52,856 bases of DNA. It comes from Oscillospiraceae bacterium. Lineage in GTDB: Bacteria; Bacillota; Clostridia; Oscillospirales; Oscillospiraceae. Below, piece after piece: positions 1,450 to 19,485 of this stretch; positions within the stretch are counted from its first letter, which is position 1; every line of letters begins with the position of its first letter. Both the position numbers and the translations under genes were made by a program. The stretch spans positions 1-52,856 of the forward strand of contig JAFSXE010000107.1 of the NCBI GenBank assembly GCA_017444195.1. The letters are read 5' to 3'. Below the pieces are notes generated by a model. That model worked only from the letters and a program-made list of their open reading frames with translations. It ran no database searches and was not told where the DNA came from.

Positions 1450-1728
1450 AAGGTAAGGGGTGTCGAACCCCTACCGGTTTTCATCGGCGGATTTCCGCCG
1501 ATACTGCGTCAAAGCCCTTGAGAATACATAGTAGTATTCCCTGCGGACTTTTTCTTGTCTCGACGAAAATCCGCTCGCTGAAAACTGCTTTGCACCTGAG
1601 AGCGAGGGATTTTCGAGGGGTTTTCGACACGCGAAATGCAGACGGGCTGACGCCCGTCAAATGACAAGGGGCAAAAAGCACCGAAAAGACCCGCTCTCAG
1701 GCGGCAGGTGTTCGGCTCCCCTTACCTT
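1450..1728 (+). repeat. 279-bp structured intergenic element (family B) bounded by 11-bp perfect terminal inverted repeats AAGGTAAGGGG / CCCCTTACCTT
   Basis: TIRs at 1450-1460 and 1718-1728. Several internal hairpins. The central core is similar to the core of the element at 10011-10287. Confidence 0.65.
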
Positions 1729-1742
1729 AAGGAGGCTCAGCC

Positions 1743-2390: not shown

Positions 2391-2404
2391 TCCGTGCTTT
2401 CTTC
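2370..2404. terminator. Bidirectional intrinsic terminator hairpin between convergent genes
   Basis: 16-bp perfect stem gaagaaagcacggatc / gatccgtgctttcttc with a 3-nt loop. The stop codon of the + strand gene lies in the loop region. Confidence 0.6.
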
Positions 2405-3103
2405 TCATATCAGCGAAAACAGCCAAACGAATAGTGGGACAAACAGGACTGCCGGCAGGAAGTTGGCGGCCTTGATTTTTGTCACGCCGATCATATTCGT
2501 GCCGATGACGACGATTAGCAGCGAGCCGGCGGCACCGATCTCGGTGATGCAGGCATCGGTAAGTAAGGGACGCAGCAGCCCTGAAAGCAGGACAATCGCG
2601 CCCTGGTAGACGAACACCGAAGCAGACGAAAGCGCGACGCCTGCGCCGAGCGAAACCGCCAGCATAATCGACGAAATACCGTCGAGCATCGACTTGGTAA
2701 AGAGCATCGCATGGTCGCCGATGAGTCCCGAATTGAGACTGCCGACGATTGCCATTGCGCCCACGCAATACAGCAGCGTACCGCCGACAAAGCCCTCGGC
2801 AATGCCGTGCTTGCCCGGCTCGCTTTTGCCGCCGAGCTTGTTCTGCACCCACAGACCGAAGCGCTGCAAAAGCGCGTCAAGATCGAGCGCCGTGCCAACG
2901 ATTGCGCCACAGGTGATCGACAAAATCAAGATCAACGAGTTTTCCGTTTTCAGCGCGCCGTCCAAGCCGATCACCGCAACGCACAAGCCGATGCCCGTCA
3001 TGACGGCAGTCGATAGTTTTTCCGAAACGCCGCGGCGGAGCAGCAGTCCGACAAGACTGCCCACCAAGATTGCGGCGGCATTGACCAAAACACCCAGAAG
3101 CAT
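2405..3103 (-). CDS. DUF554 (YdfK/YqgA-like) membrane protein
   Basis: MLLGVLVNAAAILVGSLVGLLL... followed by a repeated glycine-rich TM pattern characteristic of DUF554. Confidence 0.7.
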   Translation of the reverse strand: MLLGVLVNAAAILVGSLVGLLLRRGVSEKLSTAVMTGIGLCVAVIGLDGALKTENSLILILSITCGAIVGTALDLDALLQRFGLWVQNKLGGKSEPGKHGIAEGFVGGTLLYCVGAMAIVGSLNSGLIGDHAMLFTKSMLDGISSIMLAVSLGAGVALSSASVFVYQGAIVLLSGLLRPLLTDACITEIGAAGSLLIVVIGTNMIGVTKIKAANFLPAVLFVPLFVWLFSLI

Positions 3104-3106
3104 GAA

Positions 3107-4195
3107 TTATTCCTCGATTCTCACCGGGATCTCGCGCAGGCGCGTGGGGTTGAGTTCCAGCTCCGCCATCGTGTCGGGCGAAAGATGCACGCGCGTAATA
3201 TCAATCGTCGTGTGGCACATACCGACGTGGCCGAGTACGCGGCATTTCTGCTTGCCGACCGTAACGGTCAGCCGCCGCGGAAACAGCAGCGATTTCAGCG
3301 CGCCGAACGCGCGGCGCAAACAGTCGCGGATGCGGAACGTATCGGCGCCGATCTCGGTTGCATAGCCGTTATACCAGCCGACCGGCAGCACGGCGATGCG
3401 GATCGGCTTCGATGCGCGAAATGCGCAGCCGTAGCCGCAGGTTGCGCCCTTCGGCAGCCAGCGCGGCTCGGTCAGTTCGGCGCGGCAGACGCCGACCTTT
3501 TCCAAATCCGTCCGGAACGGCAGCCGACCGAGCAGCGCCGAGCCGACGCGCACACCGTCCTGGCAGTCGTCAAGATGGCGGAACAGCGCAGCGGAATTGC
3601 CGGCGTGGACGTGTCCCACGTCGTAGCCGGCGGCGCGGATCGCGTCGCAGACCATCGTGAAGCGCTCGGCTTGCAATTTGGTGAACGACTTGGAGCAAAA
3701 CGCAGAAGCAAAATGCGTATAGACGCCGCAGAAGTCAATATGCGCAAGATACTCATAGCACGACAGAATCTCGTCGAGCTGATCGGGCAAAAAGCCGTAG
3801 CGTCCCATGCCGGTATCGATTTTCAGATGAGCGCGGGCGCGCATCGTTTCGGCACGCGCCGCGTCGGCAAGCGCCATCGCATCCTGCTGCGACGCCACGG
3901 TGCAGATCACGTCGTGGCGGCAGAGATTGCGGAGCGTTTCGGCGTTCTGTTCGGGACGCAGCAGCAGGACCTCCTCCTGTGCGCTGCCGCTTTCGCGCAG
4001 CGTGATTGCGTCCTCCGGCTCGGTAACGGCAAAATGCGTCAAGCCGGCAGCACGGCAAATCGCCGCCAAATTGAGCAGTCCGATACCGTAGCCGTTGCCC
4101 TTCAGCACCGCCCAGACGGTCTTTTCCCCTGCCCGTGCTTGGATTTTCTCAATATTGCGGCGGATCGCCGCGGCGGATACGGAATAGTATGCCAT
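3107..4195 (-). CDS. alr: Alanine racemase
   Basis: N-terminal AVLKGNGYGIG (PLP-lysine motif), length 362 aa, AGGAGG SD upstream. Confidence 0.85.
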   Translation of the reverse strand: MAYYSVSAAAIRRNIEKIQARAGEKTVWAVLKGNGYGIGLLNLAAICRAAGLTHFAVTEPEDAITLRESGSAQEEVLLLRPEQNAETLRNLCRHDVICTVASQQDAMALADAARAETMRARAHLKIDTGMGRYGFLPDQLDEILSCYEYLAHIDFCGVYTHFASAFCSKSFTKLQAERFTMVCDAIRAAGYDVGHVHAGNSAALFRHLDDCQDGVRVGSALLGRLPFRTDLEKVGVCRAELTEPRWLPKGATCGYGCAFRASKPIRIAVLPVGWYNGYATEIGADTFRIRDCLRRAFGALKSLLFPRRLTVTVGKQKCRVLGHVGMCHTTIDITRVHLSPDTMAELELNPTRLREIPVRIEE

Positions 4196-4205
4196 AACGC
4201 GCCTC

Positions 4206-5270
4206 CTATTTTCTGTCTCTGTGGCGCAGCAGATAGACCTGCTTGCGCAGTTCCTTGAAAACGCTCGTTCCCTTTTCGATCAGCGTGTAGAACGTCGGCG
4301 CAAGCACGAGATCCATCTCGCCGATAAACTCGGTAAAGTCGCCGCCGAAGCCCTGCTTGAAGCGGTATAGACCGTAGAGCGGATTATCCTCGCTGACGAT
4401 GCCGCTGACGCCGCGGAAGTCGTAGATGCGGCAGCCGGTTTCAATCGCCCATTGGATCATCGACCACTGCAGAAGGTAGTTCGGCATCAGGTTGCGATGC
4501 TCGTTGGCGCTTGCGCCGTAGAGGTACCACACCTTGTCGCCGTAATGGATCGCCAGCGTACCGGCAATCGGCTTGTCCTCAAAAAACGCCATATACAGTC
4601 TTGCATGCTCGCCGAGGTTATCGAGCATTGCGGAAAAGTATTCGGGATTGCGCGTGACAAAGCCGTCACGCACACCGGTCGTCAGCATCAGATCGGCGAA
4701 CGCCGGCACCATTTCCTTTCCGCAGATGCGTACCTCGACGCCCTTTTTCTGCGCGACGCGGATGTTATAGCGCCACTTCTGATGGAAACCCGCCATGACT
4801 TCTTCTTCCGTCTTACCCTCGACGTTCAGACGGAAGACGTACTTCGGCTGGATTGCTTCGAAGTTCGCGCCGCCCGATTTCAGTTTGAAACCGTAGTCAG
4901 TCAAAAACTTGGTAAAGCGCTCATTTGACGAAGGCACGTCGGGATCGATTTTCACGCAGTAGGCATGGTGTTCCTTGGCGATTTCCTTCACGCCGTCAAG
5001 CAGGTCGTAGAGCGTTTCGCGGTCGTCCAAATCGCAGACGGGCGCACGGTTGCCGTAGACAAGCGTGCGGTGCGTGCGCGGAACGGGACGGATCAGCACG
5101 CTCATCGCGCCTTTGATCTCGCCGTCCTCGCCGCGCGAAACGACGGCTTCCCACTTCCACATCGGTTTCTGCTTGCCCCAAAGCACGCTTTGGGCAAAGT
5201 TTCCCTTCGGGTGGCGCTGTAAAAACGCTTCAAATTCGGGGATCAGTTCGGGTGTTACACGCTGTGCCAT
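4206..5270 (-). CDS. FemAB-family peptidoglycan interpeptide-bridge aminoacyltransferase
   Basis: FemAB-like sequence over the full length (QSxLWGKxK, WYLYGAS, FKxGFGG). Start chosen at MAQRV (5270) because the longer ORF would overlap the end of uvrB. Confidence 0.75.
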   Translation of the reverse strand: MAQRVTPELIPEFEAFLQRHPKGNFAQSVLWGKQKPMWKWEAVVSRGEDGEIKGAMSVLIRPVPRTHRTLVYGNRAPVCDLDDRETLYDLLDGVKEIAKEHHAYCVKIDPDVPSSNERFTKFLTDYGFKLKSGGANFEAIQPKYVFRLNVEGKTEEEVMAGFHQKWRYNIRVAQKKGVEVRICGKEMVPAFADLMLTTGVRDGFVTRNPEYFSAMLDNLGEHARLYMAFFEDKPIAGTLAIHYGDKVWYLYGASANEHRNLMPNYLLQWSMIQWAIETGCRIYDFRGVSGIVSEDNPLYGLYRFKQGFGGDFTEFIGEMDLVLAPTFYTLIEKGTSVFKELRKQVYLLRHRDRK

Positions 5271-5274
5271 CGTA

Positions 5275-7239
5275 TCAGTCCTTTTCTCCGCGCAGGGCGA
5301 TGATCTGATCGCGCAGCACGGCGGCATATTCGTATTCCATCATCTTGGCGGCTTCCTTCATCTGCTTTTCCAGCTTGGCAATCGCCTCGTCGCGTTCGCG
5401 GCGCGTCATCTTCACGCCGCCGCGCTTGGCGGATTTGGAAACGTCGCGCGAGATTTCCAAAAGTTCGTGGATCGGCTTGACGATCGTCTTCGGCACGATG
5501 CCGTGCACCTTGTTATAAGCGTCCTGCAATTCGCGCCGACGTGCCGTTTCGTCCATCGCCGCCGCCATGGCAGGCGTGACGGTATCGGCATAGAGAATGA
5601 CCGTGCCGTCGGCGTTTCGCGCGGCGCGTCCCATCGTCTGAATGAGTGACGTTTCGCTGCGCAAAAAGCCCTCTTTGTCCGCGTCGAGAATGGCGATCAA
5701 ACTGACTTCGGGTAAATCCAAGCCCTCACGCAGCAGGTTGATGCCAACCAAAACGTCAAACTTCTCCATTCTAAGATCGCGAATGATCTCCATGCGCTCC
5801 ATCGCGCCGATATCCGAGTGCATATAGCGCACGCGAATACCGTTTTTTGTCAGGTATTCGGTCAAGTCCTCCGCCATTTTCTTCGTCAGCGTCGTAACCA
5901 GCACGCGCTCATGGCGTTCCGTTCGCTCGTTGATCTCGCCGATCAAATCGTCGATCTGCCCTTCAATGGGACGGACGAACACCTTCGGATCGAGCAGTCC
6001 CGTCGGGCGGATGAGCTGCTCGGCAATTTGTCCGGCGCGCTCACGCTCGTATTCGGCAGGCGTTGCGGAAACGTAGATCGTCTGCCCGATGCGCGCCTGA
6101 AACTCCTCAAATCGCAGGGGGCGGTTATCGAACGCCGACGGCAGACGGAAGCCGTAATCGACAAGACTTTCCTTGCGGCTGCGGTCACCGTTATACATGG
6201 CGCGAATCTGCGGAACGGTAACGTGGCTTTCGTCGATAAACAGCAGAAAATCCTTGGGAAAATAGTCGATCAACGTCATCGGCGGCGAGCCGGGCTCGCG
6301 CCCCGAAATCACGCGCGAATAGTTTTCGATGCCGGTGCAGTAACCCAGCTCCTGCATCATTTCCATATCGTACTGCGTGCGCTGCGAAATACGCTGCGCT
6401 TCCAGCAGTTTGTTATGCTCGGTAAACCACTTGACACGCTCGTCCATCTCGCGGCGGATCTCCGTCAGGGCGCGCGCCATCTTTTCGGGCGTGGCAACGT
6501 AGTGGCTCGCCGGATAGATCGCAACGTGATCGAGCAGGCGCGTCGGCGTGCCGGTCACGGCGTTGATCTCCGAAATACGATCAATTTCATCGCCGAAGAA
6601 CTCCACGCGGATCGCGCGTCCCGCCCAGTAGGCAGGATAGATCTCCACCGTATCGCCGCGGACGCGGAAGGTATTGCGCTTGAAGTCGATATCGTTGCGC
6701 TCGTAGCGGATCGAAGTCAGCGTGGCAAGCAGCTCGTCACGGTCGCGCGTCTGTCCCGTGCGCAGGGATATGACCATATTTTTGTAGTCGATCGGATCGC
6801 CCAAGCCGTAGATGCAGCTGACCGACGCGACGACGATCACGTCCCGCCGTTCAAAGAGCGACGACGTCGCCGAATGGCGCAGACGTTCGATCTCGTCATT
6901 GATCGACGAATCTTTTTCAATATAGGTATCCGTATGGGCGATATACGCCTCCGGCTGATAGTAATCGTAATACGAAACGAAATATTCCACCGCGTTTTCG
7001 GGGAAAAGGTCGCGGAACTCCGAACAGAGCTGCGCCGCCAGCGTTTTGTTGTGCGCCAGCACAAGCGTGGGACGGTTCATCTTTGCAATGACGTTCGCCA
7101 TGGTGAACGTCTTGCCCGAACCGGTCACGCCGAGCAAAATCTGCTCGTCGATGCCGTTTTGCAGTCCGGAAACCAGTTTTTCCACGGCTTGCGGCTGATC
7201 GCCCGTAGCAGAAAACGGCGCATGCAGCACAAAGTCCAT
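5275..7239 (-). CDS. uvrB: Excinuclease ABC subunit B
   Basis: [10 protein letters not shown] Walker A, helicase motifs, and a C-terminal UVR motif ([17 protein letters not shown]). Start at MDFVLHAPF. Confidence 0.95.
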
Positions 7240-7259
7240 TTTCAGCCTTCTTTCCTCTT

Positions 7260-7952
7260 TTACAACGGTTTTTGCTTGATTTTGGCAAATGCGCGCGGAT
7301 AGTCCGTCGGCGTCGGGCGCGTTTTGCGAATGCAAAGCACGTAATGCACCGCATCGCCGCAGGGGTAGTCATAGACTTCCTCCACCGTTCCGCCGAGCAC
7401 GGCGATTGCATGTTCCGCCTCGCGCAGTTCTTCTTCCGCCTGCGCGCCCTTCATTGCAAGAAACATGCCGCCTTTTTTCACCAGCGGCAGGCACAGCTCC
7501 GCCAGCACGTTCAGCCGCGCAACGGCACGGGACGTGCAAATATCAAACTGCTCCCGGTGGGCGGTTGCATACTCTTCGGCGCGCGCCGTCACAACGTTGG
7601 CCTCCACCGAAAGTTCCGGCAGGATTTCACGCAGCCACGCCATGCGTTTGCCGAGTGAATCGAGCAGCGTAAGGGAAATCGACGGTTCGGCGATCTTCAG
7701 CGGAACGCCGGGAAATCCGGCGCCGCATCCGACGTCCGCCACGGTCTTGTCTTTGAAATCCGCGGCACGCAGCAACGCAATTGAATCAAGAAAATGGAGC
7801 GTGGCGACGCCTGCTTCATCGCGGATCGCGGTCAGGTTCATCACTTTGTTTTTTTCGAGCAGCGCCGTTCCGAAGCGACAGAGCGTATCGATCTGCGCAT
7901 CGGAAAGCGCTGCGCCGATGGCAGGCAATCCATCCGTCAGCGTCTTTTTCAT
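7260..7952 (-). CDS. rsmG: 16S rRNA (guanine527-N7)-methyltransferase
   Basis: GidB-like sequence with SAM motif [13 protein letters not shown]. The start shares 1 nt with the metG stop (TGATG). Confidence 0.9.
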
Positions 7953-9916
7953 CAGCAGAGCTTCGCGCCGGCAGGGATCGCGTCATCTACGATCACAAGG
8001 TTGAGTTTCTCCGCGCCGTTTTCCTGATGCACGGCGGAAAGCAGCATACCGCAGGACTCCATGCCCATCATCTTGCGCGGCGGCAGATTGACGATTGCAA
8101 CGAGCGTCTTGCCGACGAGCTGCTCCGGCTCATAGAACTTATGGATGCCCGACAGGATCTGACGATCCGTGCCGGTGCCGTCGTCGAGCGTGAAGCGGAG
8201 CAGTTTTTCGGACTTTTTGACCGCCTCGCACGCTTTGACCTTCACGGCGCGGAAATCCGATTTGCAGAATGTGTCGAAATCCACGTTTTCGGTCGCAAGC
8301 GGCTCAATTTCCACGGCGTTTTTCGGCTTGTTCGCCGCAGCGTGGATCGCCTCCAACTCCGCAAGTTCCTTTTCCATATCAATGCGCGGGAACAGCGGAT
8401 CGCCGATCTTCACCGTCGCCGTCTTCGGCAGCGCGTCAAACGTCGCCGCGGAATCCCAATCGTACACGTCCGCGCCGATACGGTCGCGGATCGTATCCGC
8501 CGTCGTCGGCATCATCGGCGTAAGCAGGATGCCGCAGATGCGGATCGTGGCGAGCAGATTATACATCACACGCGCAAGACGCGGCAGTTTTGCCTCGTCC
8601 TTGGCAAGCAGCCACGGCGTGGTTTCGTCGATATACTTGTTGGCGCGCGAAATGACCTTCATCACTTCCGCGAGCGCGTTCTGGAACTGATACTTTTCCA
8701 TCTGCGCTTCATAGCGGTCACGCAGTCCGGACGCCAGCTCCACCAGCGGCGCGTCGAGCGTTTCGTCGGCTTCCTGCGCTTCAGGCAGCGTGCCGCCGAA
8801 ATATTTCTGCACCATCGCGCAGGTGCGGCTGACAAGGTTGCCGAGATCGTTGGCGAGATCGGTATTGATCGTGCCGATCAGCAGTTCGTTCGAGAAGTTG
8901 CCGTCCGAGCCGAACGGGAACGTGCGCAACAGGAAGTAGCGCAGCGCGTCCACGCCGTAGCGCTCGGCGAGCAGGTACGGATCGACGACGTTGCCCTTGG
9001 ACTTGGACATTTTGCCGCCGTCGAGCAGCAGCCAGCCGTGCCCGTAGACCTTCGTCGGCAGCGGCATGGCAACGCTCATCAGCATCGCCGGCCAAATGAT
9101 CGAATGGAAGCGGACGATCTCCTTGCCCACGAAATGCACGGCAGGCCAATACTTGTCCACGTCGTTGTAGCGGTCATTTTCGTAGCCGAGCGCGGTCAGA
9201 TAGTTGAACAGTGCGTCCACCCAAACGTAGACGACGTGACCCGGATCGAAATCGACGGGGATACCCCAAGTGAAACTCGTGCGGCTGACGCAAAGATCCT
9301 CCAGGCCGGGGTCGATGAAGTTGGCAACCATCTCGTTGACGCGGCTCTTCGGCTCCAAAAAGTCGGTTTCCGTCAGCAGTTTGCGGACGGGCTGGGCATA
9401 CTTTGACAGACGGAAGAAATACGCCTCTTCCTCCGCGTCCACCACTTCCCTGCCGCAGTCAGGGCATTTGCCGTCCACGAGCTGGCTCTCCGTCCAGAAC
9501 GATTCGCAGGGCGTGCAGTATTTGCCCTTGTACGCGCCTTTATAGATATCGCCGTTATCGTACATTTTCTTGAAAATGCGTTGGATCGCGGCAACGTGAT
9601 AATCATCGGTCGTGCGGATAAAGCGGTCGTTGGAGATGTTCATTAGCTTCCACAGATCCTTGACGCCGCCCTCGCCCTCGACGATCTCATTGACGAACTG
9701 CTGCGGCGTAACGCCCTTTTCTTTTGCTTTGAGTTCAATCTTCTGTCCGTGCTCGTCCGTACCCGTCAAAAACAGCACGTCATAGCCGCACAGACGTTTG
9801 TACCGCGCCATGGCGTCCGTCGCCACGGTGCAGTAGGTGTGACCGATATGCAGCTTGTCCGAAGGGTAGTAAATCGGCGTCGTAATAAAAAACGGTTTTT
9901 TGCAATCCTTGCACAT
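7952..9916 (-). CDS. metG: Methionine--tRNA ligase with C-terminal tRNA-binding (Trbp111/EMAP-like) domain
   Basis: HIGH (LHIGHTY) and KMSKS motifs. AAGGAGG lies 8 nt before the ATG at 9916. Confidence 0.95.
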   Translation of the reverse strand: MCKDCKKPFFITTPIYYPSDKLHIGHTYCTVATDAMARYKRLCGYDVLFLTGTDEHGQKIELKAKEKGVTPQQFVNEIVEGEGGVKDLWKLMNISNDRFIRTTDDYHVAAIQRIFKKMYDNGDIYKGAYKGKYCTPCESFWTESQLVDGKCPDCGREVVDAEEEAYFFRLSKYAQPVRKLLTETDFLEPKSRVNEMVANFIDPGLEDLCVSRTSFTWGIPVDFDPGHVVYVWVDALFNYLTALGYENDRYNDVDKYWPAVHFVGKEIVRFHSIIWPAMLMSVAMPLPTKVYGHGWLLLDGGKMSKSKGNVVDPYLLAERYGVDALRYFLLRTFPFGSDGNFSNELLIGTINTDLANDLGNLVSRTCAMVQKYFGGTLPEAQEADETLDAPLVELASGLRDRYEAQMEKYQFQNALAEVMKVISRANKYIDETTPWLLAKDEAKLPRLARVMYNLLATIRICGILLTPMMPTTADTIRDRIGADVYDWDSAATFDALPKTATVKIGDPLFPRIDMEKELAELEAIHAAANKPKNAVEIEPLATENVDFDTFCKSDFRAVKVKACEAVKKSEKLLRFTLDDGTGTDRQILSGIHKFYEPEQLVGKTLVAIVNLPPRKMMGMESCGMLLSAVHQENGAEKLNLVIVDDAIPAGAKLC

Positions 9917-9956
9917 AAGTTTTTCCTCCTTGGGCATATCATTCCAAATTAATTGT

Positions 9957-9985
9957 ATTCTATCACATTTCCCGGAGAAAGACAA
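9957..9985 (-). promoter_or_regulatory. Candidate sigma-A promoter of metG (TTGTCT, 17 nt, TG-n-TAGAAT)
   Basis: Read on the minus strand: ttgtct ttctccgggaaatgtga tagaat. It lies about 40 nt upstream of the metG ATG. Confidence 0.4.
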
Positions 9986-10010
9986 GCAAAACAAAACCGT
10001 CCGTTCATAG

Positions 10011-10287
10011 GGGCGGCGCAGATTAGGGAGTATGTAGGTTTTGAACCGCCCTTTTCCGCCCGTACTGCATTAAAAAATGAGGTCATCCTGTCGGATGACC
10101 TCATTTTTGTGCTTTGTCCGGACGAAAAATTGCAGCTTCAAAACTGCGCAGCACCGTAAAGCGAGAGATTTTTGTGCAAGACAAGGCAGAGAAAGAGGGA
10201 ATCCTTTGTGGATTCCCTCTTTTGATAACGCAGGTTTGCGCAAAAAGATCCGCTTTACGGCTGCATAATCCCTAATCTGCACCGCCC
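10011..10287 (+). repeat. Complete 277-bp non-coding element (family A) with 19-bp terminal inverted repeats and two strong internal hairpins (MITE-like)
   Basis: TIRs GGGCGGCGCAGATTAGGGA and TCCCTAATCTGCACCGCCC match at 18 of 19 positions. Its reverse complement recurs at 52594-52856. Hairpins at 10073-10108 and 10194-10220. Confidence 0.85.
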
Positions 10288-10310
10288 AAAGGACGGTTTT
10301 GCTTTTTAAC

Positions 10311-11087
10311 TTACGCAATCGGCTGATTGGCCGCTTCGATGATCTTGACAAACTTCTCGGAGACGAGCGACGCGCCGCCGATGAGTCCGCCGTCGATATC
10401 CGGCTGCGCCAGCAGTTCCTCGGCGTTCTTCTCGTTCATCGAGCCGCCGTAGAGGATGGACACGCCGCGAGCGATTGCCGCGCCGTACATCTTGCGGATG
10501 ACCGTGCGGATCATCTGGCAGACCTGCTCCGCCTGATCCGGCGTAGCAGTCTTGCCCGTGCCGATTGCCCAGATCGGCTCGTAGGCAACGACGATCTTCT
10601 TGATCTTCTCCACGGCAACGCCGGCAAGCGCCGCCTTGATCTGCATGGTGATCCACTCGTCGGTGATGCCCGCCTCACGCTGCTCCAGGCTCTCGCCCAC
10701 GCAGACGATGGGGATCAGGTTCGCGCCGAGGGCGGCGTGGATCTTCGCATTCACGTCCGCGTCGGTTTCGCCCATGGCGCGGCGCTCGGAGTGACCGATA
10801 ATGACGTATTTGCAGCCGGCATCCACGAGCATATTCACGGCGATTTCGCCGGTATAGGCGCCGGAAGCGTTGGCGTTGCAGTTTTCAGCGCCCACGCCCA
10901 CACGTGTATCGCGCAGCGCACGAACGGCAGCCGGGATATCCACGGCAGGCACGCAGACCACGATGTCGCACCAGCGGCCCTTGGGCATCTGATTCTTAAA
11001 CTCGGTGAAAAACGCCTTGGTTTCGGACGGCGTCTTGTTCATTTTCCAGTTGGCGGCGATGACCGTCTTGCGGTATTTTCTGTTCAT
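10311..11087 (-). CDS. tpiA: Triosephosphate isomerase (bacterial type)
   Basis: AANWKMN, IIGHSERR and YEPIWAIGTG motifs. Confidence 0.95.
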   Translation of the reverse strand: MNRKYRKTVIAANWKMNKTPSETKAFFTEFKNQMPKGRWCDIVVCVPAVDIPAAVRALRDTRVGVGAENCNANASGAYTGEIAVNMLVDAGCKYVIIGHSERRAMGETDADVNAKIHAALGANLIPIVCVGESLEQREAGITDEWITMQIKAALAGVAVEKIKKIVVAYEPIWAIGTGKTATPDQAEQVCQMIRTVIRKMYGAAIARGVSILYGGSMNEKNAEELLAQPDIDGGLIGGASLVSEKFVKIIEAANQPIA

Positions 11088-11108
11088 CTTGGGTTGCTCC
11101 TTACTTGA

Positions 11109-12323
11109 TTATTTATCCTGCAGGCAGGCGATGCCCGGAAGTTCGCGGCCTTCCAGGAACTCCAGCGAAGCGCCGCCGCCGGTGGAGATGTGGGTGATCT
11201 TCTCGGCAAAGCCGAGCTGCTCGCAGGCAGCCGCGCTGTCGCCGCCGCCGACAATCGTCACCGCGCCGGACTCGGCAAGACCCTTCGCCACGGCGATGGT
11301 ACCCTGCGCCAGCGTCGGGTTTTCAAACACGCCCATCGGTCCGTTCCACACGACGGTCTTGGCGCTCTTGGCAGCCGCCGCAAACAGTTCGCGCGTCTTT
11401 TCGCCGATGTCGAGACCCTGCATATCCGCCGGAATCGCGTCGGCCGCAACGGTCTTGACTTCAATCGGTCCGTCGATCGGATCGGGGAATGCCTTGGCAA
11501 CGACGGTATCGACCGGCAGCAGGAGCTGCACGCCCTTCGCCGCCGCCTTGTCCATCATTTCCTTGCAGTAGCCGATCTTCTCGCTGTCGAGCAGGCTGCC
11601 GCCGACGCCGTAGCCCTTGGCGGCAAGGAACGTATACGCCATGCCGCCGCCGATGATCAGGGTATCGACCTTTTCCAGCAGGTTGGCGATAACGTTGAGC
11701 TTATCGGAAACCTTCGCGCCGCCGAGGATGGCGACGAACGGGCGGTCGGGATCGGCAAGCGCCTTGCCCATCACGCCGAGTTCCTTTTCGATCAGGAAGC
11801 CGCAGACGGCTGGCAGATAGTCGGCAACGCTGGCGGTGGAAGCGTGGGCGCGGTGCACCGTGCCGAACGCATCGGAAACGTACAGATTGGCGAGCGACGC
11901 CAGCTTCTGCGCGAACGCAGGATCGTTCTTCTCCTCGCCCTTTTCAAAGCGCAGGTTCTCCAGCAGCATGACTTCGCCCGGTCGGATGGCTTTCGCCAGC
12001 TCGATAGCCTCGTCGGACAGCGGCTCCAGCGCCTCGGCGATCTTGACTTCCTTGCCGAGCAGTTCGCTGATGCGCTTGGCAACGATCTTCAGCGAAAGTT
12101 CCGGCTTGATTTCGCCCTTGGGCTTGCCGAGGTGCGAGCAGAGGATGACCGCCGCACCGTTTTCAAGCAGGTACTTGACCGTCGGCAGCGCCGCCTTGAT
12201 GCGGACGTCGGAGGTAATGACGCCGTTTTTGATCGGCACGTTGAAATCGCAGCGGCAGAGGACTTTTTTGCCCTGCAGTTCGGCCGGAGCAAGATCGCGC
12301 ACGGATTTCTTGTTATAGTTCAT
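11109..12323 (-). CDS. pgk: Phosphoglycerate kinase
   Basis: Pgk sequence throughout ([15 protein letters not shown]). GGAAGGA SD before the ATG at 12323. Confidence 0.95.
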
Positions 12324-12339
12324 CGTATTCCTTCCTTTC

Positions 12340-12831
12340 TTATGTTTCCCATTCAATCATTCGCCCCTGCCCGATCAGGTAGGGGAAGTTTTGCTGCCGC
12401 AGCGCCTCGTAAGTTACGAGCGCCACGGAGTTGCCGAGATTCAGGCTGCGCGCTTCGGCGCGCATGGGGATGCGCAGACAATGCGACGCATGCGCACGGA
12501 GAAAATCCTCCGGCAGTCCCTTTGTTTCTTTGCCGAAGAACAGCCAAGCATCCTCCGAATAGGAAACTTCGGTATAGATGCGCGGCGCTTTCGTGGAAAA
12601 AAGCCAATAGGACTGCGGCTTTTCCTGCGCAAAAAGGTCTTGCAGGCTGTCGTGGATCGTCAGATGGACCAGCGGCCAGTAATCCAGCCCTGCGCGGCGC
12701 ACGGCGGCGTCGGAAACGTCAAAGCCGAGCGGCCGGATCAGGTGCAGATGCGCGCCGGTAGCCGCGCAGGTACGCGCGACGTTGCCGGTGTTCGCAGGAA
12801 TTTCCGGCTCTACCAAAACGATATGCAGCAT
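12340..12831 (-). CDS. trmL: tRNA (cytidine34/uridine34-2'-O)-methyltransferase, SpoU/TrmL type
   Basis: [22 protein letters not shown]... and C-terminal [11 protein letters not shown], typical of TrmL. Confidence 0.85.
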
Positions 12832-12950
12832 GCTTGATCCTTCCCTTTCCGGGACCTGTGAGTCCAAACGCTATTTTATGATATTCTCGGTAAAAAATCA
12901 ACAGTTTTTTCTTAAAAAAATAAAAAAGTTCAATCTTTTTTGCTCGCGCG

Positions 12951-12979
12951 TCATATTGTAAAAGAAATGGGAATAGATT
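12951..12979 (+). promoter_or_regulatory. Weak candidate sigma-E-type promoter for yabP-yabQ
   Basis: TCATATT, 14 nt, AATAGATT roughly resembles the sigma-E consensus. The B. subtilis yabPQ operon is sigma-E dependent. This is inference only. Confidence 0.2.
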
Positions 12980-13009
12980 GCCAACAGAATCATGCAAGAG
13001 GTGACTACC

Positions 13010-13294
13010 ATGGGAAGTATCAACGAACTGCCTGCCGCCGAACTGCCGCACAAACTGATGCTGGACGGCAGAAGTCGGCTGAACGTCAGCGGCGTGAAGG
13101 ACGTGGAGAGTTTTGACGAAGCGATGATCGTGCTGATCACCGTGCGCGGAACGCTGGTCGTTCGCGGACAGGGGCTGCATCTGAAAGCGTTGTCGCTTGA
13201 AGGCGGCGAGGTCGCCGTGGACGGCGTGATCGACGCGCTGACCTACGAAGACGATACGCCGCCGCGGCGCGGTCTGTTCGGGCGGATCTGGTAA
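13010..13294 (+). CDS. yabP: Sporulation protein YabP
   Basis: HKLMLDGRSRLNVSGVKDVESFDE...LVVRGQGLHLKALSLEGGEVAVDG matches the YabP family. AGAGGTG SD before the ATG at 13010. Confidence 0.85.
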   Translation: MGSINELPAAELPHKLMLDGRSRLNVSGVKDVESFDEAMIVLITVRGTLVVRGQGLHLKALSLEGGEVAVDGVIDALTYEDDTPPRRGLFGRIW

Positions 13295-13923
13295 TGGCGC
13301 TGAATTTACCCGTTGCCGAACAGGCGGTACAATTTCTGCTCTCCGGTCTGCTCGGCGCGTTGCTCGGCGTCGTCTATGACGTTTTCCGCCGATTGCGCCG
13401 CCACGCGCCGCACTTGACCGTGCCGCTGGATATTCTTTACGGCTGCATAACGTTTACTGCGCTCGTGCTGTTCGGACTAAGCGCAGGAAACGGGCTGCTG
13501 CGGCTGTATTCGCTTTTCGGTGCGGCACTTGGCGCGGCCGTCTATTTCGGCGCAGTCAGTCCGCTCGTTTTGGCGCTTTTGTGCCGATTGGAGCGCGTTT
13601 TGTCATTTTTGCTGCGAACACTCCTTCATCCGCTTCAAAAATTTTTCGTTTTTTTTGAAAAAATCGGAAGAAAAATCTTTTCTTTTTTCAAAAAATGGTT
13701 TACTATTATGGTGCAACAGTGGAAAAGCGGTCTAACGTTCGGAGGGGTGCGCAATGAAAACCTGGCTTCTTCGTCTGGCAGTACTGGCGTTCGTCGCATA
13801 CGGTACGGTAACGCTGCTGAATCTTCACGCGGAAATTCGCGAAAAAGAAACGCAGGCGGCGGAACTGTCCGAAAAAGTCGCAGCCGCAGAGCAGGAAAAC
13901 CAGCGTCTGCAAGAGGATATTGA
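13294..13923 (+). CDS. yabQ: Spore cortex biosynthesis protein YabQ (membrane)
   Basis: It follows yabP with a TAATG overlap. The N-terminal half holds hydrophobic helices. The 3' 170 nt overlap the next gene in another frame. Confidence 0.65.
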   Translation: MALNLPVAEQAVQFLLSGLLGALLGVVYDVFRRLRRHAPHLTVPLDILYGCITFTALVLFGLSAGNGLLRLYSLFGAALGAAVYFGAVSPLVLALLCRLERVLSFLLRTLLHPLQKFFVFFEKIGRKIFSFFKKWFTIMVQQWKSGLTFGGVRNENLASSSGSTGVRRIRYGNAAESSRGNSRKRNAGGGTVRKSRSRRAGKPASARGY

Positions 13924-14020
13924 CGCGCTGGATACCGATGAAGGTATCCAAGATACCGCGCGCAAAAAACTCGGCATGATCGCCTCGGGCGAAATCGTAT
14001 TCCACGATGTCGGCAACTGA
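13754..14020 (+). CDS. divIC: Septum formation initiator (DivIC/FtsB family)
   Basis: An N-terminal TM helix, then a coiled coil (EIREKETQAAELSEKVAAAEQENQRLQEDIDAL), then a C-terminal KLGMIASGEIVF motif. Confidence 0.8.
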   Translation: MKTWLLRLAVLAFVAYGTVTLLNLHAEIREKETQAAELSEKVAAAEQENQRLQEDIDALDTDEGIQDTARKKLGMIASGEIVFHDVGN

Positions 14021-14045
14021 AAACTTGGAGGATACAGATACATTT

Positions 14046-14438
14046 ATGGAGTTAACTGTCGGAACGATTTTGGAAGGAAAAGTTAAAACGATTACCAACT
14101 TCGGCGCAGTTGTTGCCCTGCCGGACGGCACAACGGGGTTGGTGCATATCTCGGAGGTTGCACGGACGTTTGTTAACGATATCCATGAGCATCTGACCGA
14201 GGGGCAGGACGTAAAGGTCATGGTCATCGGCACGGAAAACGGCAAGATCAACCTTTCGATCAAGCGCGCGCTTGCGCCTGCGCCTGCCGCGCCGCGTCGG
14301 GACGCGCCGAAAGCGCAAAAAGCGCCGTCGGGCCCGCCGACGTTCGATGATATGGTCAAGCGATTCCTTGCGGACTCCGACAGCAAGATTTCCGGTGTTC
14401 GCCAATACGAGCACAAGACCAAGACACGCCGACGCTAA
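14046..14438 (+). CDS. S1 RNA-binding domain protein (YabR-like)
   Basis: GTILEGKVKTITNFGAVVALPDGTTGLVHISEV...KVMVIGTENGKINLSIK is an S1 domain. The start is ambiguous between 14007 and 14046. Confidence 0.8.
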   Translation: MELTVGTILEGKVKTITNFGAVVALPDGTTGLVHISEVARTFVNDIHEHLTEGQDVKVMVIGTENGKINLSIKRALAPAPAAPRRDAPKAQKAPSGPPTFDDMVKRFLADSDSKISGVRQYEHKTKTRRR

Positions 14439-14448
14439 AGGTAAGAAA

Positions 14449-14481
14449 AGACGGGAGAGCGCCGCTCTCCCGTCTTTTTTT
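14449..14481 (+). terminator. Intrinsic terminator
   Basis: 12-bp stem agacgggagagc / gctctcccgtct followed by a T run. Confidence 0.75.
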
Positions 14482-14492
14482 GGAGGATTGCT

Positions 14493-15188
14493 ATGTTTGT
14501 TACCGTCACCGGCGGCAGCCGCGGCATCGGCGCGGAGGTCGTCCGCCGCTTTACCGCGCGCGGCGATGCCGTTACGTTTTTCTATCACCGGCACGAAGCG
14601 GAAGCGCTCGCGCTTGCAAAAGAAACCGGCGCAAAGGCTGTCTGCTGCGACGTAGCGGACAGCGCCGCAGTCGCGGCGGCGTTTTCTTCGATTCCGCGCA
14701 CCGACGTCTTAGTCTGCTGCGCCGGCATCAGTCATATGGGTCTGATCTCCGAGATTTCGGAAGCGGAGTGGCGGCGGCTCTTCGCCGTCAACGTGGACGG
14801 CGTTTTTCACGCCGTTCGCGCCGCGCTGCCCTCGATGCTCCATGAGCAGTGCGGCAGCATCGTCACCGTCAGTTCCATGTGGGGCGAGGTCGGCGCATCG
14901 TGCGAAGCGGCGTATTCGGCAACGAAAGGCGCGGTCATCGCGCTGACCAAGGCGCTTGCAAAGGAACTCGGTCCGAGCAACATTCGCGTCAACTGCGTTT
15001 CGCCCGGTGTGATTTTGACCGATATGTGCAAAAACCTGGACAGCGCGGTGCTTGACGAATTGAAGGATGCAACGCCGCTCGGTCGGAACGGCACGGCCGA
15101 CGACGTGGCGGACGCCATCGTCAAGCTTGCCGATCTGCCGTTTGTCACGGGGCAAATTCTGTCCGTCAACGGCGGTTTTGTGATGTAG
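14493..15188 (+). CDS. SDR-family oxidoreductase (FabG-like)
   Basis: TGGSRGIG cofactor motif and YSATKGAV catalytic motif. Confidence 0.85.
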   Translation: MFVTVTGGSRGIGAEVVRRFTARGDAVTFFYHRHEAEALALAKETGAKAVCCDVADSAAVAAAFSSIPRTDVLVCCAGISHMGLISEISEAEWRRLFAVNVDGVFHAVRAALPSMLHEQCGSIVTVSSMWGEVGASCEAAYSATKGAVIALTKALAKELGPSNIRVNCVSPGVILTDMCKNLDSAVLDELKDATPLGRNGTADDVADAIVKLADLPFVTGQILSVNGGFVM

Positions 15189-15247
15189 TTGCACTTTTCG
15201 ACCTTTTTTGATACAATAACGCTATCCGAACAAAGGAGTTTCCGTTT

Positions 15248-16090
15248 ATGAAAATTCTCATCAGCGCCGACAGCACCTGTGATCTCGGTCCGGTACTGAC
15301 GCGCCGCTATGACGTCCGCATTATGCCGCTCTACGTCAATAAAGGCGGCAAAATGTTCCGCGACGGCGTGGATATCCAGCCGAACGACCTTTATGCGCAC
15401 GTAGCGAACGGCGGCGACCTCTGCTCCACGGCGGCGGCAAACGTGGCGGATTATCTGGATTTCTTCACCGAACTTCGCAAAGAAGCAGATGCGGTCATTC
15501 ATCTTTGCATTTCCGCGCACTTTTCCTCAACGTATCAAAACGCCTGCATTGCCGCGCAAGAGGTTGACGGCGTCTACGTTGTGGACTCGCGCAACCTCTC
15601 CACGGGGCACGGACACTTGGTGCTGATGGCGGCGGACGCGGTGAAAGCCGGCGGCGAGCCGGAAGCCATTGCCGCGCAGCTCCGCAAGGATACGGATAAG
15701 GTGCGCGCCAGTTTCGTCCTTGAACAGCTTGCCTATATGCGCAAAGGCGGCAGATGCTCTACCGTTGCCGCGCTCGGCGCCAATCTGTTGAATCTGAAGC
15801 CCTCGATCCGCGTGACGGACGGCGCGATGGCAGTCGCGAAAAAGTATCGCGGCAATATGGAAAAGTGCATCCGCCAGTACGTGAACGACGAGCTTGCCGA
15901 TCTGGAAGCGATCCGTCCCGACCGCGTATTCATCACCCATTCGGGCGTGACGGATATGATCCTTCAGGCGGCGCAGCAGGAAGTGGAAAAACGGCATTAT
16001 TTCAAAGAGATTTTGATCACTCACGCCGGCTGCACGGTTTGCAGCCATTGCGGTCCCGGCACCCTCGGCGTGCTGTACGTGATGAAATAA
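15248..16090 (+). CDS. DegV-family fatty-acid-binding protein
   Basis: MKILISADSTCDL start, 280 aa, DegV-like throughout. Confidence 0.85.
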   Translation: MKILISADSTCDLGPVLTRRYDVRIMPLYVNKGGKMFRDGVDIQPNDLYAHVANGGDLCSTAAANVADYLDFFTELRKEADAVIHLCISAHFSSTYQNACIAAQEVDGVYVVDSRNLSTGHGHLVLMAADAVKAGGEPEAIAAQLRKDTDKVRASFVLEQLAYMRKGGRCSTVAALGANLLNLKPSIRVTDGAMAVAKKYRGNMEKCIRQYVNDELADLEAIRPDRVFITHSGVTDMILQAAQQEVEKRHYFKEILITHAGCTVCSHCGPGTLGVLYVMK

Positions 16091-16095
16091 AAACG

Positions 16096-16138
16096 AAAAA
16101 ACAGGCAATCCGATTTGCGTCGGATTGCCTGTTTTTTT
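16096..16138. terminator. Bidirectional intrinsic terminator
   Basis: 13-bp stem acaggcaatccga / tcggattgcctgt flanked by an A run and a T run, between convergent genes. Confidence 0.75.
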
Positions 16139-16150
16139 GCTGTAATAGGC

Positions 16151-17773
16151 TTATTTAACGGTAAAAGTAGTCGTCCACGTCTTCGTGGTTTTTATATCTG
16201 TCGCCACGACTTTCATCGTGTACGTTCCCCTGCTCAATCTGTTGAACACAAGATTGTTATTCAGATTTGCATACCGAACGTCCATCGACGTAGCATTCGG
16301 CGTATCCGTCGTGGACATCACCGTCTGTCCGGACGCATTGATGATTGCGCCGGTAACTTTGGTGATGTTGTAATTCGACGTCACCGAGCCGCGCAGACCG
16401 TAACTGCTGCCATAGTTGATCGAAGTGGGATAACTGGTCATGTTGATCGACAGCGTAGATGCCGCAGATGCAGGAGCAGGCGTCGGAGCAGGCGCAGCAG
16501 AAGCGGACGGATTGCCAACGGTAAAACTCGCCGTCCACGTTTTGCTGGCTTTGGTGTCCGTCGCTACGATCTTCAGCGTGTACGTGCCTGCCTTCAAATT
16601 GCCAAACACGAGATTGTTATTCAGATTTGCATACCGAACGTCCATCGACGTAGCATTCGGCGTATCTGTCGTTGACATCACCGTCTGACCCGATGCGTTA
16701 ATGATTGCGCCGGTGACTTTGGTGATATTATAGTTCGAAGTCACCGAGCCGCGCAAGCCGTAGCTGCCGCCGACGTTGAGCGAGGTCGGATAGCTGGTTA
16801 TATTAATCGTCAGCGTGGAGTCAATATTCTTAACCAGCGACAAACGATCTGCGGAAATATAACCCGATACGCCGTTGTAGGTCACGTGATAGAACGTGTT
16901 GCCCAAGCCGTTCACAACCGCACCGGCCACGGAGACCTGCGTTCCTTTCGGTAGCGTTCCCGACGTCATATTCCCAGCCGCAGCATACGGCGCGGCTTTG
17001 ATGTTGGACGCTGCCGTGGTCTGATAGACGCCCGGCTTATCCAGCGGCGCATTGTCGTTCTGATTCGGTTTGAACTCGCCGCAATTCGTGCACAGACCGG
17101 AAGCGTTATAGGTGTGGGTATGTGAATTCAGTGCATAATCGCCATTGATTATTGTCGAATTATTTACAATCCAACTCCAATATTGGCTGTTTTTTGCTCC
17201 CTTACTACCTGTCCATGCACTACTAAAACGTACATTTTTTAACGCCGCGGGGTTGTCCATGTAATACTCGAAGGTCTTTCCGCGAATTGCCGAAAGATAT
17301 CCCGTATTTGTGTTTGCAATATCAAAGTGCAAATGAGCGCCATAAGACTCACCCGTGTTGCCCATTTCGCCAATTTGGGTATTGGTATCAATATACTTAC
17401 CAATCAATGAGCTTCCTATTGTACCATTACGAAAGTGCATATATCGAGAATAGTATTTTGTTCCTTCGATATTATGCTCCATTTTTACGTAATAACCCAT
17501 TGATTTTTCATAGCCAGCATCGGTAACCGTACCTGCGGCAACAGGGTAAACTGCTTCACCCTCCCATCCGGGATTGCCAATATCAATGCCGTTGTGCGTT
17601 GACCCACTCCTGTAATAATCAATAGATGTAATGTAATAGATGCGGTCGGAATGAATTGGCCATGCCGGTTTAAAGGTTTCTGAGGCACTGGTAAACACAG
17701 TAATTCCCACCAAAAGTTGCATAGATAACACAACGGTCAAAATGGCAGAAAGAACTTTTTTAATTCTTAACAT
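16151..17773 (-). CDS. Secreted M23-family (LytM-type) metallopeptidase with an SH3-like region and two tandem ~100-aa C-terminal domains
   Basis: HNGIDIG and GAHLHFDI M23 motifs. Signal peptide MLRIKKVLSAILTVVLSMQLLVG. GGAGG 5 nt before the ATG at 17773. Confidence 0.85.
   Translation of the reverse strand: MLRIKKVLSAILTVVLSMQLLVGITVFTSASETFKPAWPIHSDRIYYITSIDYYRSGSTHNGIDIGNPGWEGEAVYPVAAGTVTDAGYEKSMGYYVKMEHNIEGTKYYSRYMHFRNGTIGSSLIGKYIDTNTQIGEMGNTGESYGAHLHFDIANTNTGYLSAIRGKTFEYYMDNPAALKNVRFSSAWTGSKGAKNSQYWSWIVNNSTIINGDYALNSHTHTYNASGLCTNCGEFKPNQNDNAPLDKPGVYQTTAASNIKAAPYAAAGNMTSGTLPKGTQVSVAGAVVNGLGNTFYHVTYNGVSGYISADRLSLVKNIDSTLTINITSYPTSLNVGGSYGLRGSVTSNYNITKVTGAIINASGQTVMSTTDTPNATSMDVRYANLNNNLVFGNLKAGTYTLKIVATDTKASKTWTASFTVGNPSASAAPAPTPAPASAASTLSINMTSYPTSINYGSSYGLRGSVTSNYNITKVTGAIINASGQTVMSTTDTPNATSMDVRYANLNNNLVFNRLSRGTYTMKVVATDIKTTKTWTTTFTVK
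16157..16815 (-). repeat. Tandem duplication with an exact 360-bp period inside the M23 peptidase gene
   Basis: 16254-16316 and 16614-16676 are identical by eye. The flanking parts differ mainly at synonymous positions. An Ala/Pro linker separates the copies. Confidence 0.85.
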
Positions 17774-17845
17774 AACAACCTCCGATAGAGCGAGTCTCAG
17801 TTCTATTTGGCTTGCTTGCGGCAATTATGATCTGCATGGCACCAA

Positions 17846-18646
17846 TCAATAGCGCACAAGTTTGCCCTGATCACATGTGCCCTCAAAAACATCCGAACCA
17901 TCAACAGCAACAACAAACCGCGTCAAAGTAGTTGTATGATCACCCATATTGTCAATGTAACGGAATTGATAATATGTCTTTCCATCAACTGTATATTTGC
18001 CATCACAAATCAGGTTGTTCGTGTTAACACCCGAAAACTCACCGATTGCTTCCTTGGCTTTATCCTCACTTATTTCAACGTTGGATGTCGCACCTTGACT
18101 CTGGACGCTGCTATACGCTTGCGCCCAAACTTCGCCTTCATCTTCCTTGCTGACCGTCACGCTGACAGTTCTGCTTGCAGCATCCCAATTGACTTTGCCG
18201 CCATAGCATTTTTCAATGAAAGCACGAAGCGGAAGATATGTCGTTCCGTTGTAGGTTGTTGCCGGAACATCGATCGTACCCGCATCAATGGTCTTGCCAT
18301 CCGACCAACCAGCATGAATCTTCGTATCATTAAGATAGAGCCAAACGGAAAAATCGCCACCTTGCGCAGCAAAGAATTCCTTATAAGGCGCCACGCCTTC
18401 TTTCGCAAAGCCCACTTCCGGGAACTCCTGAATGCTGCTCAGTTTTGAAAAAAGCGGCTGCTCGGGGACCATGCAGCGGTTGTTGATAATGACCGGTTTT
18501 GCAGTACTGCCCGCAAACAAATCCGTTCCATTCAGCAAAACCTTAACATTCTCGGAGTAATTCTTGACCTCCACCGCGGAGACTGAAACGCCGACAAGCA
18601 GCGCGACAGCCAAAAGAAATGCCGAAATTTTTGTAATGTGTTTCAT
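17846..18646 (-). CDS. Secreted copper-amine-oxidase N-terminal (stalk) domain protein with a PepSY-like C-terminus
   Basis: Signal peptide MKHITKISAFLLAVALLVGVSVSA. VKVLLNG...PVIINNRCMVP...GTTYLPLRAFIE...KVNWDAASRTVSV pattern. Confidence 0.7.
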   Translation of the reverse strand: MKHITKISAFLLAVALLVGVSVSAVEVKNYSENVKVLLNGTDLFAGSTAKPVIINNRCMVPEQPLFSKLSSIQEFPEVGFAKEGVAPYKEFFAAQGGDFSVWLYLNDTKIHAGWSDGKTIDAGTIDVPATTYNGTTYLPLRAFIEKCYGGKVNWDAASRTVSVTVSKEDEGEVWAQAYSSVQSQGATSNVEISEDKAKEAIGEFSGVNTNNLICDGKYTVDGKTYYQFRYIDNMGDHTTTLTRFVVAVDGSDVFEGTCDQGKLVRY

Positions 18647-18714
18647 TTTTTCGATTCCTTTCTGTTTTTGTTTGCTTGATAAAAGCACAACCACTATAAC
18701 AAACTGCAATTATT

Positions 18715-18744
18715 TTGTCAATTATTTTTTATTCATTTTAGAAT
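18715..18744 (+). promoter_or_regulatory. Candidate promoter (TTGTCA, 18 nt, TAGAAT) for the RHH gene
   Basis: Read directly in the AT-rich divergent intergenic region. Confidence 0.4.
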
Positions 18745-18807
18745 ACAAATTGTGTTCTTATGGCAAAATAGATTAAGCAGTAAAATAGTATTAGTGAGGT
18801 AATGAAA

Positions 18808-19420: not shown

Positions 19421-19485
19421 TTTGAATTAGAGTTTCAATTCTGGCGGTGAAGCGTATGGAACAAAAGATACAGCGTGATCGAAAC

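Follow-up and report, generated by a model that had tools for sequence, protein, structure and literature searches.

A repeated 277-bp element in the window

The stretch of DNA analysed here (52,856 nt, hereafter the window; ∼56% G+C, with its closest TpiA homologues in Oscillospiraceae) begins and ends inside copies of one short repeat, a complete copy of which separates tpiA from metG. Is this repeat a mobile DNA element, a structured RNA module or a product of the assembly? An earlier note on the sequence had described a 277-bp non-coding element in at least three copies, present at both window ends, and the sequence coordinates bear this out. The complete copy (E1 copy 1) occupies positions 10011–10287 of the plus strand, in A-end to B-end orientation, with the termini GGGCGGCGCAGATTAGGGA (10011–10029) and TCCCTAATCTGCACCGCCC (10269–10287). 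These are the termini that the note had given for its 19-bp terminal inverted repeats, but the repeat reaches 27 nt, at 89% complementarity. Copy 2 (52594–52856, minus strand) is inverted, matches element positions 15–277 and is cut by the window end 14 nt before its A end. It differs from copy 1 by the two single substitutions and the one 4-nt loop that the note had listed, that is, by six mismatches in 263 nt (97.7% identity). The loop belongs to hairpin 1 and is reverse-complemented between perfect 16-bp arms (tgtc at 10089–10092 versus gaca at 52789–52792), a flip that is typical of palindromic DNA. Copy 3 (1–37, plus strand), also as described before, is a B-end fragment that matches element positions 233–277, with one 8-nt deletion between TAATC repeats, and is cut by the window start. 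Homology among the three copies ends at GGGCGG...CCGCCC, plus 2 nt.

A generalised terminus pattern gave three matches, compared with 0.37 expected. The window also holds a diverged family member that was absent from the earlier note, E2, of type II (1450–1728, plus strand; 279 nt), so that family members in the window amount to four copies or fragments. Its termini (AAGGTAAGGGG.../...CCCCTTACCTT) are unlike those of E1, its arms are 71–74% like those of E1, and its predicted fold and size are the same (fold z = −8.6; nhmmer E = 1.5e-51).

The copies lack coding capacity. Open reading frames (ORFs) overlapping E1 are at most 93 aa long, the GC3 of the longest is flat at 0.49 as opposed to 0.66–0.85 in typical genes of the window, and the frames are not kept across insertions and deletions that distinguish the copies. 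When 36 window ORFs were scanned with Pfam, no transposase or recombinase domain was returned, in agreement with the earlier statement that no copy encodes a transposase.

Predicted fold and anatomy

Folded as one strand, E1 is predicted to form a Y, with a terminal stem, two arms of ∼110 nt and a short junction. The 27-bp terminal stem, P1, pairs the A-end terminal inverted repeat (10011–10037, the 5′ half) with the B-end repeat (10261–10287, the 3′ half). Between them lie two imperfect 107-nt hairpins, arm 1 (10038–10144) and arm 2 (10154–10260), on either side of a three-way junction (10145–10153, the CTGCGCAG region) that is the site of nesting in a related copy. The two arms are paralogous, and the family HMM also matches each copy reversed, more weakly. 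As DNA, the element folds with −84.4 kcal/mol (z = −12.7), a value reached by none of 200 shuffled sequences; with its flanks and as RNA it gives z = −17.7.

The two long hairpins flanked by A and T runs that the earlier note had pointed out are found at the arm tips. At the tip of arm 1 (10073–10108), a 4-nt loop closes a perfect stem of 16 bp, and that of arm 2 (10192–10222) is a perfect 13-bp stem with the apex AATCC-N5-GGATT; each lies between an A run and a T run. By their sequence, both tips look like intrinsic terminators on either strand, and the first was also called terminator-like in a terminator prediction. A terminator-like arm 1, in which a G+C-rich hairpin is followed by a T run, is also present in the related copies L047, L125 and L126 described below. 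Such runs occur in about half of the members, and since they are missing around the hairpin tips of L117, L124 and E2, terminator character is not a family trait.

The fold is conserved beyond the window. When the Y structure was placed on nine type I sequences, 93.8% of cells were paired, as opposed to 41–46% with slid partners. Moreover, 43 of the 94 pairs were changed on both sides in a compensatory manner among these nine copies, and none of 500 shuffles reached that number. The arm tips of type I members keep an ATCC-N4-5-GGAT apex.

Gene context and empty sites

All three E1 copies lie just downstream of gene 3′ ends, as had been stated, with their B ends 22–24 nt past stop codons: 23 nt past that of tpiA (10311) for copy 1, 22 nt past that of a cytidylate-kinase-like gene (52571) for copy 2 and 24 nt past that of an Asp-Al_Ex permease gene (62) for copy 3. 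Copy 1 is situated on the minus-strand transcription path from pgk-tpiA through the element to metG, whose start (9916) is 94 nt downstream. A metG promoter-like site (TTGTCT-17-TGnTAGAAT, 9985–9957, minus strand) lies outside the element and was left intact by the insertion. E2 has a different position, between the predicted promoter region and the ribosome-binding site of a DUF624 gene (ATG at 1743), and its hairpin tips without A and T runs are consistent with survival in a 5′ leader. As for tpiA itself (canonical gene at 10311–11087), we note that the window contains a second, weak triosephosphate-isomerase-like ORF at 50511–51224 (PF00121, E = 1e-16, partial profile coverage).

The bases flanking copy 1 are mutually complementary (AAAACCGTCC... 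and ...GGACGGTTTT). The left flank, AAAACAAAACCGTCCGTTC + atag (9988–10010), pairs with the right flank, aaaGGACGGTTTTGCTTT (10288–10305), which adjoins the tpiA stop codon (10311–10313), and together they resemble the two halves of a split host terminator. A related species provides the corresponding empty site. The 170-kb ENA contig L122, which carries the closest TpiA homologue (96% amino acid identity), is collinear with window positions 62–16099 at about 85% nucleotide identity. Its alignment breaks at window 10006/10288, where E1 is missing, and the tpiA–metG spacer is 119 nt long in L122 as opposed to 394 nt in the window. In its place, L122:10788–10824 forms an intact, terminator-like hairpin of 17 pairs (AAAAACCGTCCGTTCtgttgcaGAACGGACGGTTTTT), followed by the same metG promoter-like site. 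Judged from these sequences, copy 1 sits in the apical part of a predicted terminator whose halves now flank it, and its presence between tpiA and metG is an insertion polymorphism into a putative terminator loop. As L122 represents a different species, a few junction bases at this empty site cannot be reconstructed. A second break in the alignment, at window 1448/1730, shows that E2 is also missing from its orthologous site in L122.

Exact matches to the TpiA and MetG of the window were not on record, and there is hence no empty site from the same strain. Three further contigs whose TpiA is 87% identical (L131–L133) end just past tpiA without a family member and were set aside as uninformative. 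They differ in an unrelated polymorphism in the pgk–tpiA spacer, where one of the three otherwise identical assemblies has ∼128 extra nt (L131:2330–2470, compared with L132:2458–2500), at whose borders 28 nt of the pgk 3′ end (GGCATCGC.TGCCTGCAGGAT.AGTAAG) are directly repeated.

Related copies in other assemblies

In total, at least 13 related copies were present in other assemblies. Two come from goat-rumen Oscillospiraceae MAGs (L047, 84% identity; L068, 91%; both at contig ends) and two from contigs of a metagenome collection (L117, complete, 68%; L120). Searching protein catalogues with a six-frame translation of the element recovered L124, L125, L126 and L127–L130, in which the copies had been mis-annotated as ORFs. 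The repeat thus generates spurious 'hypothetical proteins' of 107–189 aa in such catalogues (P0121–P0124, P0127–P0129); three other candidates (P0125, P0126, P0130) were unrelated repetitive proteins and were discarded. A six-frame search with a 1523-aa chimeric query gave no match, with a candidate list that was probably swamped.

Among the matches listed in a 16-mer terminus scan of genome contigs, most were due to chance, L047 and L068 being the real ones. In the metagenomes, the 19-mer terminus matched five contigs, of which L117 and L120 were real loci and three, unrelated contigs, were due to chance; scanning them for complete copies with both termini yielded no match. Viral contigs, plasmids and phages gave no match to the element either. 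Applied to 0.97 Mb of fetched DNA, the family HMM found all known copies and nothing else. Complete members measure 275–281 nt, and every one of them has terminal inverted repeats.

Six contig ends fall inside copies, namely both window ends and those of L047, L068, L120 and L124. This supports the suggestion of the earlier note that the element breaks the assembly, and indicates that short-read assemblies of Oscillospiraceae from rumen and gut are fragmented by the repeat, so that its description is of use in assembling and annotating such genomes. Complete copies are internal to contigs of seven independent assemblies (L117, L125–L130). Near some of the copies we also observed G+C-rich palindromes (L123:440–540, L124:230–320, L127:30–90 and 1200–1290) made up of GTAGGGGCG...CGCCCCTAC and GCGGCGGATTGGATACGCCTGCGG-like units, which could represent further, REP-like repeat families in these bacteria.

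Insertion sites and nesting

One copy is inserted into another. E3, which is of type II, measures exactly 277 nt and is closest to E2, lies at L125:550–826 inside the three-way junction of a host element of type I. Once E3 is taken out, the host sequence is whole again, with CACCGC followed by ACAGCGAGAG compared with the consensus CACCGCAAAGCGAGAG and without any duplicated bases. A 7-nt remnant of a nested copy is present at the same junction in L047 (about 121–134).

We then excised the other copies in silico. Upon removal of E1 copy 1, the flanks refolded into a strong terminator hairpin (−14.8 kcal/mol). The same was true for L128, where joining AAAAAAGTGCCGCCCgtaa to taaaGGGCGGCACTTTGCTTT gave a strong terminator hairpin of −16.1 kcal/mol; here, the flanks form a perfect 9-bp split terminator, AAAAAAGTGCCGCCCgTAA on one side of the element and TAAaGGGCGGCACTTTGCTTT on the other. 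Excision at L130 and L125 produced weak terminator hairpins, and at L126, L127, L117 and E2 no terminator hairpin reformed. The one-sided flanks of the truncated copies (E1 copies 2 and 3, L047, L068) resemble terminator halves, consisting of an A run with a G+C-rich arm or of a G+C-rich arm with a T run. In at least two cases, the element thus occupies the apical loop of a predicted intrinsic terminator.

Direct repeats of 2–3 nt flank six of the ten complete copies: TTA on both sides of L128 and L130, AA on both sides of L125, L126 and E2, and TT on both sides of L117. L129 has TTA and TTT, which is not a perfect repeat, E1 copy 1 has TAG and AAA, and L127 and E3 have no direct repeat. Permutation gave a mean of 2.6 copies with such repeats (p about 0.009), and target duplication is thus suggested on statistical grounds only.

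Termini and sequence conservation

Family members fall into three types by their termini. Type I reads GGGCG-N7-WTAGGGA, where the middle 7 nt are GCGCAGA, GCGCAAG, CACTCAC or CGCTCAC and change together at both ends. Type III reads GGCGG-N6-7-TTAGGGATTTACACG, and type II, to which E2 and E3 belong, RAGGTAARGG. Across subfamilies, A-end positions 1–5 (GGGCG) and 13–19 (TTAGGGA) are conserved, whereas positions 6–12 are variable yet still complementary to the opposite end.

We quantified conservation as the mean pairwise identity among type I and III members. It was 0.91 for terminus positions 1–5, 0.36 for positions 6–12 and 0.87 for positions 13–19. Inside the element, it was 0.75 at the junction, 0.80 in the 5′ lower stem of arm 2, the highest value of any internal part, and 0.45–0.60 at the arm tips. 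In their conservation, parts of the interior accordingly equal the terminal blocks and far exceed the middle of the terminal repeat. Such a combination of constant length and conserved interior is atypical for decaying MITEs and hints at a constraint on structure. Together with the self-nesting, the fixed length and the conserved Y fold suggest a structural requirement for mobilisation.

Nature of the element and alternative explanations

Nesting, presence or absence between species, the breaking of contigs, the mixed orientation of copies and the lack of an Rfam match or an internal promoter favour a mobile element that acts at the DNA level over a dedicated RNA gene. We consider it probable that the element is a non-autonomous, MITE-like transposon of an undescribed family in Oscillospiraceae. 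The literature that could be searched contained reviews of comparable elements and no description of the 277-bp repeat family. The earlier note had likewise proposed a recently mobile MITE-like element, with a structured RNA module as the alternative. The former gains support from the empty sites in L122, from the 97.7% identity of copies compared with ∼85% in flanking genes, and from the nesting, whereas no observation speaks for the latter in particular. Looking for further copies and empty sites in related genomes, as the note had recommended, was productive in both respects, with copies in other assemblies and empty sites in L122. The other search it had recommended, for an autonomous partner with the same terminal inverted repeats, found none in the window or in ∼0.97 Mb of fetched loci; nor did viral contigs, plasmids and phages contain an insertion sequence with matching termini. 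An IS30-like element at L127:92–1190, about 100 bp from an E1-type copy and with HTH_38 as the N-terminal domain of its 328-aa ORF, was considered as a partner and rejected, its termini (GGTGTTGCACTT) being unrelated.

For the MITE-like transposon, we propose that a transposase encoded elsewhere would recognise the two-block termini (GG(G)CG at the very end and, 12 nt inward, TTAGGGA). This enzyme would probably be of the DDE type, and its staggered cuts of 2–3 bp would place the element in A/T-rich targets (TAA or AA), with 2–3-bp target duplications left behind. Terminator loops, being extruded or single-stranded, could be favoured as targets, or they could simply be places where insertion is tolerated. 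As the two terminator-like hairpins of the subfamily in the window would act in both orientations, a split host terminator need not abolish termination, and insertions directly after stop codons would survive. By landing in terminator hairpins and bringing terminator-like replacements, a mobile element of this kind may have found a route to near-neutral selfish DNA in compact genomes. Both the compensatory changes and the flipped loop could arise by intrastrand template switching or by repair of palindromic DNA, in which case no RNA function is needed to explain them. Several points argue against a MITE: the loci searched contain no autonomous partner with matching termini, a clean duplication is lacking at copy 1, L127 and the nested copy, the empty site belongs to another species, and the length is unusually constant and the interior in part unusually well conserved.

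Alternatively, a folded single strand could be the mobile form, mobilised by an HUH-type enzyme (IS200/IS605 TnpA or RAYT-like) or by another structure-recognising enzyme that homes into single-stranded loops, in the manner of PATEs or REPINs. The enzyme would then read the Y shape and not the terminal sequence. The clearest targets are indeed hairpin loops, the nested copy entered a junction loop without duplication, and the fixed size, the kept fold and the freely variable middle of the terminal stem all fit, as does the loop flipped between two near-identical copies; the ATCC-N4-GGAT tips could be protein-binding sites. Nevertheless, we regard this explanation as unlikely. Long terminal inverted repeats with two conserved blocks are lacking in IS200/IS605 elements and REPINs, direct repeats of 2–3 nt are found at six of the ten copies, no tetra- or pentanucleotide is conserved beside one end alone, the GTAG tag is not conserved, and no HUH gene was seen among the window ORFs scanned.

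A form of this model in which the folded single strand of ∼277 nt would home into terminator and junction loops by means of an enzyme that reads its shape and the two terminal blocks, and would replace the terminators it splits (a 'mobile terminator'), seems to us quite improbable.

Could the repeat instead be a selected RNA or transcription module, such as a bidirectional terminator, a 3′-UTR stabiliser or an sRNA, spread by recombination with no selfish transposon involved? The strong covariation, the two terminator-like hairpins and the constant length would all be expected of it, and in the closest subfamily the B end points toward the 3′ end of the upstream gene in all five copies with a visible flanking gene, an orientation bias of 5 to 1. 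This orientation bias vanishes across the whole family, however, where the A end faces the gene in L125, L126, L127 and L130 and both orientations relative to the neighbouring gene occur, and E2 resides in a 5′ leader. The A and T runs that would make the hairpins terminators are absent from L117, L124 and E2. No promoter-like site was found inside the element, and a scan against Rfam 15, also suggested by the earlier note, returned no match on it at the gathering threshold and none even at E = 10; the best sub-threshold scores (≤18 bits) covered simple hairpins only. Mismatches comprised 14 G:T and 7 A:C columns on the A-to-B strand, an asymmetry that is biased, and hence not decisive, because the structure was derived from that same strand; the read-through transcript at copy 1 would be the opposite one. 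In addition, long near-perfect helices, presence or absence between species, nesting and contig breaking are traits of transposons. Taken together, we find such a module distinctly improbable. Finally, an assembly or scaffolding artefact with a chimeric repeat at contig ends, as might be suspected from the ends of the window and of several other contigs inside copies, is scarcely credible, given that copy 1 and E2 lie well within the window, each between two unique flanks, and that complete copies lie inside contigs of seven independent assemblies.

Comparison with known repeats

The MITE-like transposon that we favour would belong to a well-known kind of element and not to a novel class. MITEs are usually under 200 bp and up to about 400 bp long and have no transposase gene (PMC3184786), and the bacterial examples reviewed so far include Correia/nemis in Neisseria, RUP in S. 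pneumoniae and bcr1 in the B. cereus group (PMC3184786, PMC2229807). At 277 bp, without a transposase gene, and with terminal inverted repeats, dispersed copies at filled and empty sites and a long stable stem-loop, E1 shares these features with the class; the target duplication typical of MITEs is only statistically suggested, and no partner insertion sequence was found in the loci and collections searched. Like the bacterial MITEs, the family is small, intergenic and multi-copy, and shows insertion polymorphism. Correia and RUP are flanked by 2-bp TA repeats, which the short flanking direct repeats described above resemble. The present element differs from Correia, RUP and bcr1 in having a Y-shaped double hairpin of ∼277 nt and not a single one, in showing no established sequence relationship to them and in its hosts, which are uncultured Oscillospiraceae. 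It differs from known MITEs also in that the middle of its terminal repeat varies between subfamilies and its interior is in part as conserved as the terminal blocks.

Among repeats with terminator-like structures, SPRITE is a dispersed repeat of about 105 nt with one terminator-like hairpin, located near gene ends (PMC3184786). The element shares its dispersal, its terminator-mimicking structure and its location, but it is 277 nt long as opposed to ∼105 nt, encloses two hairpins in a closing stem in place of a single one, and has terminator character in one subfamily only. The EFAR repeats of E. faecalis reportedly measure roughly 170 bp and consist of two contiguous stem-loops without a long closing terminal stem; many are said to lie 0–20 bp from stop codons, and they have reportedly been proposed as terminators. 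The two stem-loops near stop codons are alike in both, the size and the host are different, and this comparison is one of descriptions and not of sequences.

REP sequences are palindromes of 20–40 bp that are mobilised by RAYTs and bear a conserved terminal tetranucleotide, GTAG or CGTC, as a tag on one side (PMC3733652). Like these and the REPINs, the element is an extragenic palindrome, often at gene 3′ ends, whose hairpins are kept by compensatory change. It differs from them by its 27-nt terminal repeats, where REPs and REPINs have no long ones, by its 110-nt arms and by the lack of a GTAG or CGTC tag. GTAG does occur at element positions 24–27 in E1, L124, L126 and L127, but it is replaced in L117, L125 and type III. 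We thus rejected an identity with REPs or REPINs on account of the ∼110-nt arms and the unconserved tag, and an identity with PATEs derived from IS200/IS605 on account of the long terminal repeats and of the lack of a fixed motif beside one end alone. PATEs have neither terminal inverted repeats nor target duplications and insert 3′ of a fixed tetra- or pentanucleotide. IS1397 and ISKpn1 insert into the loops of palindromic units, and the insertion of IS200/IS605 elements is guided by hairpins. These elements are a precedent for landing in extragenic hairpin loops, although they are autonomous and have other ends (IS3 and HUH families).

Other features of the window

Several features of the window that are separate from the repeat deserve mention. 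The block at 16151–20120, with genes for an M23 peptidase/SH3 protein, a Cu_amine_oxidN1-domain protein and a '23S rRNA-intervening sequence protein', has a low GC3 (0.45–0.54, compared with about 0.7 elsewhere) and lacks collinearity with L122. It adjoins a tRNA gene (20268–20351) and the SRP RNA gene (20374–20637) and, given this position, may be an island that was acquired horizontally; no integrase was seen. On the minus strand, positions 33059–40849 hold two adjacent, very large genes for surface proteins, one of 690 aa with SLH domains and one of 1901 aa; divergent InlB B-repeat (Flg_new_2) domains occur in each of the two. A malK-I RNA motif (RF03069, 132 bits) precedes an ABC-transporter ATPase gene at 45911–46090; the start of the ATPase ORF (45995) overlaps this motif and has probably been placed too far upstream.
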